The notes: generated from the sequence alone by a model not told the origin. DNA of 57,297 bases from a virus (IMGVR_UViG_3300028146_000002:1-57297); one strand, 5' to 3'; positions 2,424-11,951 are shown, numbered from the stretch's first letter. Numbers and translations are program-made.

Positions 2424-3475
2424 ACATCAAATCCGCCGATCTCAAATCCGCCCTGTCGCGTGTTTCATCGCTCGCCACTGGACGCACAACGATGCCTGTG
2501 TTGAATTGCCTGCGGCTGGAGGCGAAGGCGAACACGCTGGAAATCGCGGCGACCAATCTTAATGTCTACGCCACAATCAAATGCCCGTGCGATGGCGACC
2601 TTCCCGCCATTTGTGTGCCTGCTGTGCCGATGGTTGGGCTGACTGACGGTGCTGCTGAGTCCATCAGCCTTGAGATGGACGGCGAACGGCTGGTATTCAA
2701 ATCCAACGGCACGGCATCACTCGGGACAATTGCGGCAGCGACATTCCCCGAGACGCCTGCGGAGAAGTCAGAGAACCTTGGCCTATCGCTCTGCGGGGTC
2801 GCTGACGGACTCGACGCCTGCAAGTGGGCGATGGATGACGACACATCTTCCGAGCCTTGGAAACAGGGCGTGTGGGTTCGTGGCAAGGCCAATCAATTGA
2901 ACTTCTTCGCGAGCAACCGCACGATGCTCGCACATCTCAAACAGGATTTGATTTCAGCGGAGTGCGACTTTCAGGTTCCAGCGCACGGCATGGCTTACGC
3001 GATTCCAGCACTGCGCAGTGATGACGCCATCCTGGCCCTTGGCGACAAGTATCTTTCCATCATTTGGCCGATGGGCTCAGTGTTCATCCTGCGGCACGAC
3101 TGCAAAGCACCTGATTTCAATGTCATCCTGAACCAGCAACGCGATCTCGTCGGCGATGTTGACCTGAATCAGCTTCGCAAGCCCTTCGAGACGATGAAGA
3201 TGCTGGCCAATGGCGATTTGTTTCCAATGGCGCTAGTCAGTCCCGGAATGACCGGCATCCAGCTTGATTTCGCGGGAAAGTCCAATCACTTCTCGTATCT
3301 GTTCCCCGGCGTTTACGGCGGCAAGGAGTTCAAAATTGACATTGAGAAAACCATCAACGCAATCGCGCATACGCCGCGTGAGAAGCCTGTGAAAACGAGT
3401 CGCTCAATCGGCGCCCTGTTCTTTGAATCAGGCGATTACACGGCAGCCATCGCGCTCATCAATAACAACGCATGA
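2420..3475 (+). CDS. dnaN: DNA polymerase III beta sliding-clamp homologue
   Basis: 351 aa. The N-terminus LKSALSRVSSLATGRTTMPVLNCLRLEAKANTLEIAATNLNVYA matches the DnaN pattern. Confidence 0.7.
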   Translation: MNIKSADLKSALSRVSSLATGRTTMPVLNCLRLEAKANTLEIAATNLNVYATIKCPCDGDLPAICVPAVPMVGLTDGAAESISLEMDGERLVFKSNGTASLGTIAAATFPETPAEKSENLGLSLCGVADGLDACKWAMDDDTSSEPWKQGVWVRGKANQLNFFASNRTMLAHLKQDLISAECDFQVPAHGMAYAIPALRSDDAILALGDKYLSIIWPMGSVFILRHDCKAPDFNVILNQQRDLVGDVDLNQLRKPFETMKMLANGDLFPMALVSPGMTGIQLDFAGKSNHFSYLFPGVYGGKEFKIDIEKTINAIAHTPREKPVKTSRSIGALFFESGDYTAAIALINNNA

Positions 3476-4011
3476 TTTACGCCCAAGAGACCAGTGTTTC
3501 GGTCGAGAAGTCTCGCGCCGAACTGGAAACGATCCTTACCCGCTACGGGGCCAACTGTTTCGGCTATATGACCAATGAGACGCACGCGGCGATTGGTTTC
3601 AGGGCGAAGAATCGCAATGTAAAATTCGTGCTGCCTTTGCCGCGCAGGGATGAAAAGCGGTTCTGGTACACACCCGCCCGTCGCAACAGGCGCACCGACC
3701 AAGAGGCGTATCGCGAATGGGAACAAGCCTGCCGGTCCGCTTGGCGCTCGCTGCTGCTGTGTGTTAAAGCCAAACTGGAAGCGGTTTCGGCTGGCATCAC
3801 GACATTCGAAGCTGAGTTCCTCGCGCACTTCGTTCTGAATGACGGCAGAACGTTTGGCGAGATGGCCATACCAAGCCTCGATGGCACGATCTCAAGCGGG
3901 GCATTGCCGCTATTGCTGCCGGAATCAACGGAATCAAAAGCCGAGCGCAACGACCACAATCGTGATGCGATTGTTGATGCTGTTTTCACGCCATTGGAGA
4001 AAGCGACATGA
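3472..4011 (+). CDS. Hypothetical protein (recombination module)
   Basis: Start is coupled to the clamp stop. Composition is protein-like. No motif recognised. Confidence 0.5.
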   Translation: MIYAQETSVSVEKSRAELETILTRYGANCFGYMTNETHAAIGFRAKNRNVKFVLPLPRRDEKRFWYTPARRNRRTDQEAYREWEQACRSAWRSLLLCVKAKLEAVSAGITTFEAEFLAHFVLNDGRTFGEMAIPSLDGTISSGALPLLLPESTESKAERNDHNRDAIVDAVFTPLEKAT

Positions 4012-4087
4012 CACTCATCCTCTTCCTCTTTTTCGCCTTGCTGATACTCAAGGCGCTCGTGTGTGCGGTAAATCAAACTGACGATAT

Positions 4088-7735: not shown

Positions 7736-8220
7736 GCGCGCAACCGATATTGGACGCCTGCTGCGGCTCACGCATGTTTTGGTTCGACCGCAAGAACCCT
7801 GCGGCGGTGTTCGTGGACAATCGGCGGGAGCGCCACGAGTTGGTGGATAAGTCGAGCACAGGCGGCAGCCGGTCGCTGATTGTGGACCCGGATATTTTGG
7901 CGGATTTCACTTCGCTGCCATTCCCTGACGGCCGCTTTGCCCTTGTAGTGTTCGACCCTCCACATCTTGTCCGAAACGGCAAGAGTGGTTGGCAGGCAAA
8001 GAAATACGGCAAGCTGGAAGGCGATTGGAAAGAGATATTACGCCGTGGATTTGCTGAGTGCTTCCGGGTGTTGAAACCTGACGGCGTTTTGATTTTCAAG
8101 TGGAATGAGCACGAGATTCCCGTATCGCAAATCTTGGCACTAACGCCCGCCAAGCCCTTGTTCGGAAACCGATGCGGGAAGGTGGCTAAATCACATTGGA
8201 TTGTGTTTATGAAGGAATAA
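7732..8220 (+). CDS. DNA amino-methyltransferase (N6-adenine or N4-cytosine class)
   Basis: Motif I ILDACCGS and motif IV FDPPH. Confidence 0.7.
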   Translation: MSAQPILDACCGSRMFWFDRKNPAAVFVDNRRERHELVDKSSTGGSRSLIVDPDILADFTSLPFPDGRFALVVFDPPHLVRNGKSGWQAKKYGKLEGDWKEILRRGFAECFRVLKPDGVLIFKWNEHEIPVSQILALTPAKPLFGNRCGKVAKSHWIVFMKE

Positions 8221-8222
8221 CC

Positions 8223-9857
8223 ATGGACCTTCGTTGTTACCAAGATAAGGCTCACGCCGCGATCTTTGAGGCGTGGAAACGATTCGCGTCAACGTTGTTG
8301 GTGATGGCCACGGGGACAGGCAAGACCATCGTGCTCGCGCATGTCATCAAATCCATGTGGCTGAAGCGGGCGATGGTGCTCGCACATCGCACTGAACTGA
8401 TCCTCCAAGCGAAGGAGAAAATCATGGCCGTGACGGGCTTTGATGTGGAGATTGAGAAGGCTGACCTGTATGCCTGCGAGAGCCTTTACCATCGTATGCC
8501 GGTCGTTGTCAGTAGTATCCAGACCCAAATCAGCGGCCCGAAGGACAAGCGGCGGTATCTGCGGTTCAATCCTATGGACTTCGGAGTGCTCATCTGTGAT
8601 GAGGCGCATCACAGCACGAGCAAGAGTTGGAAGGAAGTCATCGCACATTATCGGCAGAATCCAGACCTGAAGGTGCTCGGGGTAACTGCGACACCCGACC
8701 GTTCGGACGGTGAGGCGATGGGTCAAATCTTTGAATCAGTCGCCTTTGAATACGGCATCCTGGACGCCATTCGCGATGGCTACCTAGTGGACATTACGCA
8801 GCAATTCGTGCGCGTCTCCACGCTGGACTATTCACATGTGCGGACGACGGCGGGCGATCTGAATGAGGGCGACCTGTCGAAGGTGATGGAGATGGAGGAA
8901 AATGTTCAGGGGCTTTGCCAGCCGTCGCTCGAAGCAATGTTTGGGCTTGCGCCCAAGACGCTGAGTGCCGTCCCGGTTCCTGATTGGAAACAGTATCTCT
9001 CGGGGCTTGGAAGGAAGCCGCGGCGAACCATCGTGTTTACGGTCTCGGTGGCACAGGCTGAGATGTGCGCCAGTGTGTTCAGCCGCGCACTGGATGGCGT
9101 TGAGTGGGTATGTGGTGAGACGAACAAGGAGAAGCGGGCGGCGATAGTTTCTCGCTTTGCGAGTGGAGACACGCATGTAGTTACAAATTGCGGCGTATTT
9201 TTAGAAGGGTTTGACAACGCTGGAGTAGAGCTAATCGTAATGGGTCGCCCAACCAAATCACGGGCGCTTTATACACAGGCCGTTGGCCGCGCCACTCGTC
9301 CGCTTCCCGGCATCGTGGATGGATTGGCGACCGCCGAAGAACGCCGTTCCGCTATTGCCGCCAGCCCAAAGCCCTTCGCCAGGATTTTAGACCCAGTGGG
9401 CAACAGCGGTCGCCATAAACTAATAAATTGCACAGACATCCTCGGTGGCCACATCTCCGAAGAAGCCCGCGAGGCAGCGGTCAAAAAGGCGATGGATGAA
9501 GGCAAGCCCGTCCGCATCATGGTCACGATGAACAATGCGGAGGCTGAGCTTGAGCGCAAAAAGCAGGAAGCGGCTGAACTCGCCCGCAAACGTGCCGATG
9601 CCCGCAAGGCTCATCTGTTGGCGCGTGCTGATTACGACATTCGTGACGTTGACGCCTTTGGCCAAACTGAGCGCATTCCGATGGGCCGTATGAGCCGAGA
9701 TGGGCGACAGTTCTCGGAGAAGCAGGCCAACGTTCTCCGTCGAGCGGGCATTGACCCGAACAAATTCGGATACCGTCAAGGGCAGGCAATTATCGGAAAA
9801 TTGATCGCAAAATGGAAGAAGGAATCAAATGAACGTCAAATGGCGACGGGTTACTAA
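8223..9857 (+). CDS. SF2 DEAH-box helicase
   Basis: Walker A ATGTGKT, motif II CDEAHH, and TATP. Confidence 0.85.
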   Translation: MDLRCYQDKAHAAIFEAWKRFASTLLVMATGTGKTIVLAHVIKSMWLKRAMVLAHRTELILQAKEKIMAVTGFDVEIEKADLYACESLYHRMPVVVSSIQTQISGPKDKRRYLRFNPMDFGVLICDEAHHSTSKSWKEVIAHYRQNPDLKVLGVTATPDRSDGEAMGQIFESVAFEYGILDAIRDGYLVDITQQFVRVSTLDYSHVRTTAGDLNEGDLSKVMEMEENVQGLCQPSLEAMFGLAPKTLSAVPVPDWKQYLSGLGRKPRRTIVFTVSVAQAEMCASVFSRALDGVEWVCGETNKEKRAAIVSRFASGDTHVVTNCGVFLEGFDNAGVELIVMGRPTKSRALYTQAVGRATRPLPGIVDGLATAEERRSAIAASPKPFARILDPVGNSGRHKLINCTDILGGHISEEAREAAVKKAMDEGKPVRIMVTMNNAEAELERKKQEAAELARKRADARKAHLLARADYDIRDVDAFGQTERIPMGRMSRDGRQFSEKQANVLRRAGIDPNKFGYRQGQAIIGKLIAKWKKESNERQMATGY

Positions 9858-10620
9858 GCAGTGCAAATGCCAGATCTGCCAGAAGGATGGATGGTGCACC
9901 GTGAGTGAGATGGGTCATTGCTGCATGAGAATTTCAAGCGACCGCCCAATGCGAAATGGCGGGTGGCTGCATCCACTGAATGGCAAGCGCGTCGAACTTC
10001 CGCCACCTGAACCTGAAAAGCCTTCCATCAACTGCACCGCTATCATGCGCGATCTTTGGCGCAAGACCACTGACACGCAACGCAGTGAACTTGCCGAACG
10101 ATTGGGCGTCTCATTGTTCGCCATTCGTTGCGTCGGTGCGTGCTGGCATCCTGCCTTCAACGCGTGGGCATTCCCGATGGCTGATGCTTTCGGTTGTATA
10201 GTGGGCATTCGTCTGCGCAATGATTCAGGTCGCAAATGGGCAGTCTGCGGGAGCAGGCAGGGGATCTTCATCCCGGTTCATTGCCCACCGCAGCCTTTGG
10301 TGTTCGTGTGTGAAGGACCGACAGATACCGCAGCCGCACTCACCATCGGATTGTTCGCCATTGGCCGGCCAAGCTGCTCGGGTGCTGTGGAGCAAACCGC
10401 ACAGGCAATCTCCCGCTTTCGTTGCCAGCGTGCCGTGCTCATTTCAGACAATGACAACGCAGGCAGCGTGGGCGCAAGGACACTCGCCGAGCGATTGCCC
10501 ATTCCAAGCTGCATCACGGTTCTGCCCGCGAAGGACATGCGTGAATTCGTGCGGATGGGCGGCACATCGGAACTCCTGGAATCACTCACAAATTCGCTTG
10601 TATGGAATCAACCACATTGA
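9829..10620 (+). CDS. DNA primase (zinc finger plus Toprim domain)
   Basis: N-terminal CKCQIC...CC zinc cluster. Toprim motifs VCEGPTD and SDNDNAG. Confidence 0.7.
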   Translation: MNVKWRRVTKQCKCQICQKDGWCTVSEMGHCCMRISSDRPMRNGGWLHPLNGKRVELPPPEPEKPSINCTAIMRDLWRKTTDTQRSELAERLGVSLFAIRCVGACWHPAFNAWAFPMADAFGCIVGIRLRNDSGRKWAVCGSRQGIFIPVHCPPQPLVFVCEGPTDTAAALTIGLFAIGRPSCSGAVEQTAQAISRFRCQRAVLISDNDNAGSVGARTLAERLPIPSCITVLPAKDMREFVRMGGTSELLESLTNSLVWNQPH

Positions 10621-10925
10621 AGCTATTGAAACGCCTTAGCCAACCGCATCCGCGCCCTGAAGAAAGGAACCAAGTGAGAAACGGTCACTTGCGAATGCCG
10701 ATGACGAAACGCATTGCTGAAATGGAGATCGGTCAATCAATCCTTGTGGATACCCACAAAGACCGATGCCACGCGCTTAACTTTGGACGGCTGAACGGAA
10801 TAACGCTGTCCACACGCAAAGAAAACGGCGCCGGCTATCGCATCTGGAAAACCTCAGATGAGCCAGCCAAACGAAAATCAGGCAAACCACGGAGCGAACG
10901 ACGGGTGTACGTGTTGAACCCATGA
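10602..10925 (+). CDS. Hypothetical protein (start uncertain)
   Basis: 107-aa ORF. An alternative ATG lies near 10696. Confidence 0.4.
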   Translation: MESTTLKLLKRLSQPHPRPEERNQVRNGHLRMPMTKRIAEMEIGQSILVDTHKDRCHALNFGRLNGITLSTRKENGAGYRIWKTSDEPAKRKSGKPRSERRVYVLNP

Positions 10926-10928
10926 CAA

Positions 10929-11951
10929 ATGAATTTCTACAATGAAATTGACCCTGGAAAAGCAGCCTGGTTGCGTGAACTCATCCGGCGCGACGTTATC
11001 AGCCCCGGCAGAGTTGAGGAGCGGTCCGTCCTCGAACTCTCAGACGCTGGACTTGTTCGCTACCGACAGTTCCATTTCTTCGCCGGGATCGGTATCTGGT
11101 CCTACGCCCTCAGACTCGCCGGCTGGCCAGATGACCGCGAAGTCTGGACCGGAAGCTGCCCCTGCCAGCCCTTCTCCGTCGCCGGCCAAGGTAAAGGCAC
11201 GGCAGACGAGAGACACCTTTGGCCAGCTTGGTTTCGACTTATCAGCCTCCGACGCCCTGTCGTGGTCTTTGGCGAGCAGGTTGCGGACGGTGACGGACAG
11301 ACTTGGCTCGACGCTGTTCAATCTGACATGGAATCAATTGACTACCGCTTCGGGTCGGTTGCGCTTCCGGCTGCGGGCTTCGGTGCGCCGCACGGCAGGC
11401 ACAGGACTTTCTTCGTGGCCGACACCGCAGACCGTGGAACCATCGAGCGCAGACAGGCCATCACGCGCGGCAACGGGCCGGAAGTCGGAATACCTCGGGA
11501 GAACGGCGAATCTAGCATCCTGGCCAACGCCTCAGAGTTCGGACATGACGGGCGGCGGGCAAGCGAAGCGAACGGAGCAGGCAGGTACATCAAAGAACCT
11601 GAACGACTTTGCACTGCTGGCGAGTTGGGCGACGCCAACGAAGCGGGACTGGCGCAGCAACGAAGCAACCGAGGAATATCACAAGGCCAGGCGCAGCCAC
11701 ACACGCGGCAAAGCACTGAACGAGCAGGTTCACCAACTAACGGCTTCTGGCACGATGCCGAATGGCTCCCCTGCACAGACGGAAAAGCGCGGGCAGTTGA
11801 ACCCGGCACATTCCCGCTGGCTCATGGCGCTCCCGCCCGTGTTCTGCGACTGCGCGGTTTCGGCGATGGCATCGTTGCGAGCGTTGCGGCGGAATTCATC
11901 AAAGCGTACATCGAAACCCAACAACCCCTAACCCCTTTAAACGATGCGTAA
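10929..11951 (+). CDS. dcm: DNA (cytosine-5)-methyltransferase
   Basis: Motif I FAGIG (11079), motif IV PCQPFS (11160..11177), motif VI GEQV, motif VIII GAPHGRHRTFFVA (11382..11420), and motif X-like GFGDGIV (11856..11876). Confidence 0.85.
   Translation: MNFYNEIDPGKAAWLRELIRRDVISPGRVEERSVLELSDAGLVRYRQFHFFAGIGIWSYALRLAGWPDDREVWTGSCPCQPFSVAGQGKGTADERHLWPAWFRLISLRRPVVVFGEQVADGDGQTWLDAVQSDMESIDYRFGSVALPAAGFGAPHGRHRTFFVADTADRGTIERRQAITRGNGPEVGIPRENGESSILANASEFGHDGRRASEANGAGRYIKEPERLCTAGELGDANEAGLAQQRSNRGISQGQAQPHTRQSTERAGSPTNGFWHDAEWLPCTDGKARAVEPGTFPLAHGAPARVLRLRGFGDGIVASVAAEFIKAYIETQQPLTPLNDA
10942..11931 (+). CDS. 329-codon ORF in the +1 frame of dcm, encoding a WPTP-repeat protein (candidate overprinted gene)
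   Basis: The frame is stop-free along the whole dcm gene. It contains GSTLFNLTW..LRASVRRT..SSWPTPQ, then ASWPTPQSSD, ASWATPTKRDW and LNPAHSRWLMALPP. I recognise these as recurrent motifs of phage methylase-associated proteins. Confidence 0.45.
   Translation: MKLTLEKQPGCVNSSGATLSAPAELRSGPSSNSQTLDLFATDSSISSPGSVSGPTPSDSPAGQMTAKSGPEAAPASPSPSPAKVKARQTRDTFGQLGFDLSASDALSWSLASRLRTVTDRLGSTLFNLTWNQLTTASGRLRFRLRASVRRTAGTGLSSWPTPQTVEPSSADRPSRAATGRKSEYLGRTANLASWPTPQSSDMTGGGQAKRTEQAGTSKNLNDFALLASWATPTKRDWRSNEATEEYHKARRSHTRGKALNEQVHQLTASGTMPNGSPAQTEKRGQLNPAHSRWLMALPPVFCDCAVSAMASLRALRRNSSKRTSKPNNP

Follow-up and report, generated by a model that had tools for sequence, protein, structure and literature searches.

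A cytosine DNA methyltransferase gene in the viral contig IMGVR_UViG_3300028146_000002 contains a second, nested coding frame that is nearly as long as the gene itself. The window that we analyzed is a stretch of 57,297 nucleotides, nearly all of a metagenomic contig of 57,311 bases, and the gene lies at positions 10929 to 11951. We call its methyltransferase frame alpha (frame A) and the nested +1 frame beta (frame B). Across the family, each frame is conserved, stays open, and is under a constraint of its own. We think that the locus probably encodes a split DNA methyltransferase made of two polypeptides, alpha and beta, similar to M.EcoHK31I. The first-pass annotation, which was made from the sequence alone, had described the whole C5-methyltransferase gene as dual-framed, and a listing of the open reading frames (ORFs) bears this out, with frames of 340 and 329 amino acids.

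Frame A contains FFAGIG at 11076, PCQPFS at 11160, GEQV at 11271, GAPHGRHRTFFVAD at 11382, PLAHGAP at 11814, and GDGIV at 11862. Frame B contains GSTLFNLTW at 11305, RLRFRLRASVRRT at 11356, SSWPTPQ at 11410, ASWPTPQSSD at 11515, ASWATPTKRDW at 11620, and GQLNPAHSRWLMALPPVFCDC at 11791. The first-pass annotation had quoted motifs from both frames, and every one of them is present; only their exact positions were off, as they pointed at the tryptophan or a few bases inside the motif, which is immaterial. It had also stated that the strongest motifs of the two frames are encoded by the same nucleotides. This is true of all three pairs that it quoted: PCQPFS in frame A reads PASPSPS in frame B, GAPHGRHRTFFVAD reads RRTAGTGLSSWPTP, and PLAHGAP reads RWLMALP.

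The +1 frame is open far beyond chance. We compiled 193 loci, drawn from bacterial genomes as well as from phages and viral contigs; of these, 181 are full-length and 176 are non-identical. Our null model was synonymous shuffling, which keeps the amino acids and the codon usage. For the window's gene alone, shuffling predicts 2.5 stop codons in the +1 frame (P = 0.03), which is weak by itself. Across 27 genes, 6 +1 stops were observed versus 105 expected. Across the 176 genes, codons 30 to 309 had 34 observed stops versus about 630 expected, or roughly 18-fold fewer. These were 27 versus 113 expected at codons 30 to 79, 2 versus 260 at codons 80 to 169, 0 versus 171 at codons 170 to 269, and 5 versus 88 at codons 270 to 309. 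Outside of this range, +1 stops were enriched: codons 0 to 29 had 257 versus 200 expected (170 versus 142 at codons 0 to 19 and 87 versus 58 at codons 20 to 29), and there were 211 versus 117 expected from codon 310 to the end. With +1 stops concentrated toward both ends and almost missing between them, this is an open frame with defined borders, like a gene.

All 181 full-length homologues keep the nested +1 frame. The longest +1 open stretch covers an average of 91% of the gene (minimum 61%), versus 20% for the +2 frame. As a control, the dcm gene of Escherichia coli has at most 88 open +1 codons of 473. The window's frame A gene has a guanine-plus-cytosine (GC) content of 60%; a homologue from Paenibacillus phage Jacopo, with a locus GC content of 45%, retains 236 open +1 codons. 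When we compared both translations to phage genomes with tblastn, the two frames hit the same loci, with 41 to 50% identity for A and 31 to 44% identity for B, and B was always in the +1 frame of A. A chance or GC-driven origin of the openness is ruled out by the shuffling nulls, the +2 frame control, and the low-GC homologue.

The codon alignment of the 176 genes shows where each frame is constrained. From 10929 to 11168, the pattern is that of ordinary single coding: position 3 of frame A is the most variable, and the identity of synonymous codons is as expected. From 11169 to 11438, the synonymous codon identity in frame A is 0.52 to 0.81, versus 0.32 to 0.43 expected, and from 11739 to 11858 it is 0.68 to 0.91, versus 0.25 to 0.39 expected, with position-3 entropy as low as 0.27. 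Excess synonymous constraint, which the first-pass annotation had suggested looking for, is thus present in both of these blocks. Two patches in the middle, at 11499 to 11528 and 11619 to 11648 (the second and third WPTP repeats), vary the most at position 1 of frame A, which is position 3 of frame B. The middle outside of these patches is poorly alignable. From 11859 to 11948, position 3 of frame A is the most variable again. Between the window and its relatives, frame-B identity is 0.44 at codons 80 to 169 and 0.62 at codons 270 to 309, versus 0.27 and 0.29, respectively, after shuffling both genes.

The closest relative of the window's gene is at positions 3001 to 4020 of a contig from Logan (SRR29078258; locus L194, protein P0124). 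The DNA of the two genes is 91% identical over the first 499 bases and 85% identical over the last 177. In the relative, the segment corresponding to 11427 to 11732 of the window is replaced by unrelated DNA whose +1 frame also encodes repeats of the WPTP type. At 10942 to 11168, 17 of the 27 substitutions between these genes are synonymous in A and nonsynonymous in B. On entering the dual region, the substitution rate drops from 0.113 to 0.062 per site, and the bias toward A-synonymous changes is weaker there.

In most relatives, beta comes with start signals of its own. Counting from the last upstream +1 stop, the first ATG in that frame falls at +75 to +109 of frame A in about 80% of the 176 genes. 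Nearby, the invariant Arg32 of alpha is encoded by AGG in 69 of the 176 genes, versus 8% gene-wide; Ser33 is encoded by AGC or AGT in 110 genes; and Asp36 is encoded by GAT in 131 genes and by GAC in 26, versus 38% GAT gene-wide. Together, these codon choices create AGGAGC-N8-ATG in the +1 frame. In public data, the called B-type proteins mostly start at these two methionines, which are at profile positions 88 and 94.

Alpha is recognizable as a C5 cytosine methyltransferase. It matches PF00145 from Pfam (E = 6e-15; 55.9 bits, with a cutoff of 22), over amino acids 69 to 168 only, and it matches phrog_363 across its full length (amino acids 1 to 332; E = 8e-72). Its score against TIGR00675 is 37 bits, which is under the cutoff of 100.65. 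phmmer aligns it to M.HhaI across motifs IV to VIII. The protein is identical to one in public data (P0121). We tested for the patterns of motifs I (FxGxG), IV (PCQ), VI (ENV), VIII (QxRxR), and X (GNxV), and the catalytic motifs are in one chain: FFAGIG (I), PCQPFS (IV), GEQV (VI), HGRHR (VIII), and GDGIV (X). The window's motif X (11862 to 11876) has aspartate instead of the asparagine of GN in the family's GNAIV; another protein (P0123) also has GDGIV.

Between motifs VIII and X, neither the alignment nor an AlphaFold2 model of alpha contains a small domain, that is, a target recognition domain (TRD) and motif IX. In this model, which was built with 117 homologues, the predicted local distance difference test (pLDDT) score is above 90 for amino acids 1 to 165, 40 to 54 for amino acids 170 to 270, about 80 for a hairpin at 278 to 290, and about 96 for the motif X helix at 317 to 331. 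Amino acids 170 to 270 are also unconserved (identity of 0.09 to 0.22), and the middle of alpha is 17% glycine and 12% arginine with few hydrophobic residues. When we searched for similar structures with Foldseek, the top matches were M.HhaI (E = 1.8e-9) and M.HaeIII, with alignments that extended over only about 190 columns. Because of the low pLDDT at 170 to 270 and the limited extent of these matches, the model indicates that alpha is a large domain without a folded small domain.

Beta matches phrog_1008, which is labelled "DNA methyltransferase," over amino acids 41 to 310 (E = 4e-29). We found no match to beta in Pfam, NCBIfam, PADLOC, or PDB, and none of its more than 4,567 called homologues has a Pfam domain. 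In the AlphaFold2 model of beta (121 homologues), amino acids 1 to 100 are disordered, and a helix (102 to 121) and a hairpin (126 to 148) have pLDDT values of 84 to 92; these coincide with the first block of dual constraint. Each B protein has 2 to 4 WxTP motifs (mean 2.7), and the number grows with gene length (r = 0.49); the A proteins have essentially none. A regular expression for a motif-IX-like sequence matches 155 of 176 B proteins. By inspection, motif IX is LTPRECARLMGF in E. coli Dcm, LNPDWVECLMGF in the nested protein of phage Jacopo, and LNPAHSRWLMAL in frame B of the window; the sequence LNPAHSRWLMALP in the window's beta resembles LTPRECARLMGF of Dcm.

Beta-like proteins are widespread. 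Our search with frame B found more than 4,567 called proteins (best E = 5e-68), and a profile of frame B matched 25,470 cluster representatives (clustered at 50% identity) with E ≤ 1e-3 and 9,138 with E ≤ 1e-30. They occur in phages of Proteobacteria and Firmicutes. A few records in GenBank annotate both frames. In Escherichia phage K1ind2, the methylase is a "C-specific methylase," and the ORF nested in it (ORF28 locus, 1213 to 2010) was annotated in 2010 as a "putative Mte8-like protein"; searches for Mte8 in the available papers and source names gave no explanation of the label. PhiXhv-5 has two "methyltransferases." In phage Jacopo, gp56 (1249 to 2304) and gp57 (1451 to 2155, nested in the +1 frame) are both labelled as DNA methyltransferase, and identical gp57 proteins are present in several Fernvirus phages. 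Jacopo gp57 is similar to the B profile (hhalign probability 98.4%, E = 1e-14). In the open-access text that we searched, we found no description of nested genes in phage cytosine methylases, and the scale, with called beta-like proteins in more than 25,000 clusters and no Pfam family for them, appears to be unreported there.

The arrangement in Mycobacterium phage Papez is different. Its gp46 (1312 to 2139) is a methylase of 275 amino acids, with a 107-codon +1 ORF (1559 to 1879) that encodes SEPRTAGNGSSSLLPTPLARDSKG. A small six-frame hmmsearch matched this ORF to the hairpin-LLPTP part of the beta profile (E = 1.6e-5). WLMGLPRGW is in the methylase frame of Papez, 17 residues before GNGVVPQQA. 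Since WLMGLPRGW is in frame with motif X and the hairpin-LLPTP part is in the +1 frame, the partition of elements between the chains may differ between lineages, as in this actinophage. The first-pass annotation had attributed WPTP and WLMG.P motifs to phage methylases, which holds only in part. In the records that we examined, these motifs are in nested +1 ORFs that are labelled as methyltransferases; WLMGLP is within the methylase frame itself only in Papez.

Changes of frame in mid-gene were found in just two of about 195 loci. In L194, a -1 frame change near 3785 splits both of the normal products, and the called protein of 332 amino acids is a chimera of the N terminus of alpha and the C terminus of beta. 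In the other locus (L024; IMGVR_UViG_3300045947_000082, 192 to 1380), a +1 change in the middle puts the C terminus of alpha, with motif X, in the frame of the middle of beta. These are most simply explained as indels or assembly errors. Gene calling can also hide alpha: in a contig of 50,338 bases from ENA (ERZ1426841; P0006), the frame-B ORF was called, as a protein of 368 amino acids with no match in Pfam, and no methylase was called there. Many public contigs probably hide a Dcm beneath a "hypothetical protein."

The closest precedent that we know of, and one that the first-pass annotation had not named, is M.EcoHK31I from E. coli, which recognizes YGGCCR. Its beta polypeptide is encoded wholly within another frame of the gene for alpha; alpha contains motifs I to VIII, motif X, and a predicted TRD, and beta contains motif IX (PMC2836561; PMC3404938). 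Methyltransferase activity requires the association of alpha with beta, and in vitro, beta can do without its N-terminal 42 residues (PMC2836561; PMC3404938). The window's locus resembles this system in having a second ORF nested in the methylase gene and, by motif inspection and the AlphaFold2 model, a large chain with motifs I to VIII and X and without motif IX. The likeness is one of architecture, as described in these papers; the name EcoHK31I is absent from the source names. The sizes are also similar: about 38 and 23 kDa for M.EcoHK31I (as the plasmid names M38 and C23 suggest to us), versus 340 amino acids for alpha and about 230 for the constrained part of beta. However, M.EcoHK31I is part of a restriction-modification system, whereas the window's methylase is an orphan in a phage replication module. 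Also, the predicted TRD of M.EcoHK31I is in alpha, whereas in the window's family, the variable module with conserved motifs is in beta, and the region between the motifs of alpha is unconserved and disordered.

M.AquI is another naturally split C5 methylase, whose two chains are divided within the variable region (PMC3404938). Unlike the window's genes, the subunits of M.AquI are consecutive rather than nested (motifs I to VIII and half of the variable region, followed by the rest and motifs IX and X), and its motif X is on the small subunit rather than on alpha. M.HhaI, M.HaeIII, and E. coli Dcm share the large-domain fold and the catalytic motifs of alpha, and their motif IX resembles the C-terminal motif of beta, but they have the small domain (TRD and motif IX) in the same chain. 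E. coli dcm also lacks a long +1 ORF, unlike the window's family. Nested genes whose products work together are known from the Rz and Rz1 spanin genes of phage lambda: Rz1 is fully embedded in the +1 frame, and both products are subunits of one complex. Rz1 is short, at about 60 codons, and has an unrelated function, whereas the nested frame described here has about 300 codons.

We propose the following mechanism for the split methyltransferase. Alpha would be the catalytic large domain, with motifs I to VIII; its middle would be a disordered spacer of about 100 residues that needs only to be stop-free; and at its C terminus, a short hairpin and the motif X helix would close the domain that binds S-adenosylmethionine. 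Beta would be translated independently from its own start. In most relatives this would be the internal AGGAG-N8-ATG, about 100 bases into alpha, and in the window it would be the ATG at 10942, probably reached by reinitiation. Beta would provide the parts that alpha is missing: the helix-hairpin, the variable WPTP module, and the motif-IX-like LNPxxxRWLMGLP. The WPTP-repeat module most likely recognizes the target sequence. As for M.EcoHK31I, alpha and beta would assemble into the active enzyme; we infer both the assembly of the chains and target recognition by beta.

Several observations weigh against this proposal. First, the window does not contain the family's internal ribosome-binding site and ATG, and has the codons CGG, TCC, and GAA instead. 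Its frame B is free of stops upstream as far as 10933 and has an ATG 13 bases after that of alpha; L194 has the same two ATGs. No Shine-Dalgarno motif is visible before 10929 or 10942. Because of this, and because both ATGs follow the stop codon of the upstream ORF, we infer from the sequence that translation may start at either one by termination-reinitiation. Second, the papers on M.EcoHK31I place the predicted TRD in alpha, not in beta. Third, the model of beta is mostly of low confidence (mean pLDDT of only 61), and we found no similar solved structure, either with Foldseek of this model against PDB or with the beta hidden Markov model against PDB sequences. Fourth, when we compared the beta profile to E. 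coli Dcm with hhalign, the alignment was not significant and was at the wrong place. Because of this, the assignment of a putative motif IX to beta is based on inspection of the motif and on its position.

The last two of these points would also fit a different explanation: beta might be translated separately, share no more than the DNA with the methylase, and have another job, for example as a regulator that binds DNA, an anti-defence factor, or an accessory protein in replication. The absence of detectable homology to any entry in Pfam, NCBIfam, PADLOC, or PDB is also consistent with this. However, beta is seen only within this Dcm lineage and in a fixed register with the motifs of alpha; its L-x-P-x5-LMG-F/L-P motif sits at the point where motif IX is missing from alpha; no folded small domain is present in alpha; and the sole studied case of such a gene architecture is a two-chain methylase. 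We therefore consider another job for beta to be unlikely.

The first-pass annotation had proposed two models: an overprinted second gene that is conserved within this dcm family, or, as it judged unlikely, a single recoded chain that reads A, then B, then A. In the recoded chain, a +1 shift after motif VIII and a -1 shift back before motif X would yield a canonical monomer. The resulting order (motifs I to VIII, variable region, IX-like motif, and X) is indeed canonical; in Papez, WLMGLPRGW is in frame with motif X and the LLPTP segment is in the +1 frame; and L024 and L194 do change frame in mid-gene. But the middle of frame A contains no stop in any of the genes, even those of 400 to 600 codons, which recoding does not need. 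Nor does recoding need frame B to be stop-free from about codon 30, as it is; this frame is open over about 250 bases ahead of any point where a shift could occur. B is constrained over 11169 to 11438, where A is also read for motifs VI to VIII, and the conserved ribosome-binding site and ATG belong to B itself. We also looked for slippery sites, as had been suggested, and there is no X XXY YYZ heptamer or homopolymer of at least 5 bases inside the gene. We know of no bacterial gene with two programmed shifts. With no slippery site, both frames open from end to end, and dual constraint, we rejected a programmed ribosomal frameshift, and we regard the recoded chain as very improbable.

The only X XXY YYZ heptamers in frame A are at the very end, at 11933 to 11942 (CCCTTTAAAC). 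They are 3' of the frame-B stop and a few codons 5' of the frame-A stop, and nothing indicates that they are relevant.

In contrast to recoding, the overprinted gene is supported by the openness of the +1 frame, the conservation of B, the start signals, and the database matches. In particular, the +1 frame is largely uninterrupted by stops in the homologues (on average, 91% is open in the 181 full-length genes), and database proteins do match its translation (phrog_1008, at 4e-29, and more than 4,567 homologues). It is hardly credible that there is no second product, with the openness due to composition, codon bias, or amino acid content and the matches being miscalled ORFs: the 60% GC content, the mere 2.5 +1 stops expected for the window's gene, and the origin of the 4,567 or more B-like proteins as gene-caller output (with B called instead of A in at least one contig) would suit this idea, but the shuffling null is exceeded about 18-fold at codons 30 to 309 and stops are overrepresented on either side of that range, the +2 frame is interrupted throughout, the homologue with 45% locus GC keeps 236 open codons, B identity is above the shuffled null by 0.17 to 0.33, and codon choices create a ribosome-binding site and an ATG.

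Features of the alpha/beta locus in the window (positions counted from the first nucleotide of the window)
Feature	Positions	Strand	Description
Start region	10923..10944	+	Stop codon (TGA) of the upstream ORF at 10923-10925, alpha ATG at 10929, beta ATG at 10942; read from the sequence
Frame A gene (alpha)	10929..11951	+	340 amino acids, ends with TAA; C5 cytosine DNA methyltransferase chain with motifs I, IV, VI, VIII, and X
Frame B gene (beta)	10942..11931	+	+1 frame, 329 codons, ends with TAA; wholly inside alpha
Beta N-terminal part	10942..11168	+	Frame B is open; selection on frame A only
Dual-constraint block 1	11169..11438	+	Alpha motifs VI and VIII, preceded by the last part of motif IV, overlapping the beta helix-hairpin (amino acids 101-150) and first WPTP
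Variable middle	11439..11738	+	Beta WPTP repeats 2 (11515-11544) and 3 (11620-11652); alpha is a disordered spacer
Dual-constraint block 2	11739..11858	+	Alpha hairpin FWxDAxW..PLAHGxPxRV over motif-IX-like beta GQLNPAHSRWLMALPPVFCDC
Alpha-only tail	11859..11948	+	Motif X (GFGDGIV; family consensus GYGNAIV) and its helix

On the 5' side, the methylase gene has a helicase (8196 to 9857) and a primase (9829 to 10620) as neighbors. We scanned eight neighboring ORFs and found no recognizable restriction enzyme among them, so the methylase is an orphan phage enzyme, within the phage's replication module. The usual role of orphan phage methylases is to shield the phage DNA from restriction by the host. 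Given its location in the replication module and the lack of a restriction enzyme among the eight ORFs scanned, the window's methylase likely has this protective role as well. The dual-coded region also contains an antisense ORF of 155 codons (11342 to 11809, minus strand), which may be a by-product of its stop-poor composition.

More broadly, the nested alpha/beta C5 methyltransferase is a known but little-noticed kind of enzyme, whose precedent was shown experimentally once, for M.EcoHK31I. The scale of the family and the location of the variable module in beta exceed the descriptions in the literature that we examined. We can imagine a stronger version of this proposal, whose chances we see as evenly balanced. 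Beta would be an ancient component that a very large lineage of cytosine methylases from phages and prophages cannot do without (in Proteobacteria and Firmicutes, and reduced in phages of Actinobacteria), and it would carry the whole target-recognition module, with the WPTP repeats and motif IX. The region of alpha in the place of the TRD would be a stop-free spacer, and exchange of the middle block would swap specificity, in both frames at once. If this is true, then these genes are among the longest (about 300 codons) and most widespread pairs of same-strand overlapping genes in prokaryotic viruses, and they have been missed by standard annotation.

Long overlapping genes on the same strand are rare in bacteria and phages and are often disputed; with very strong comparative support and an experimental precedent, this family could become a reference case. 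The beta family lacks a Pfam model despite comprising more than 25,000 clusters at 50% identity. Gene callers retain only one frame of the pair, so the annotation at thousands of loci shows either a methylase that lacks its probable specificity subunit or a hypothetical protein, with the methylase missing. Across this lineage, predicting the specificity of methylation from alpha alone would then be misleading.

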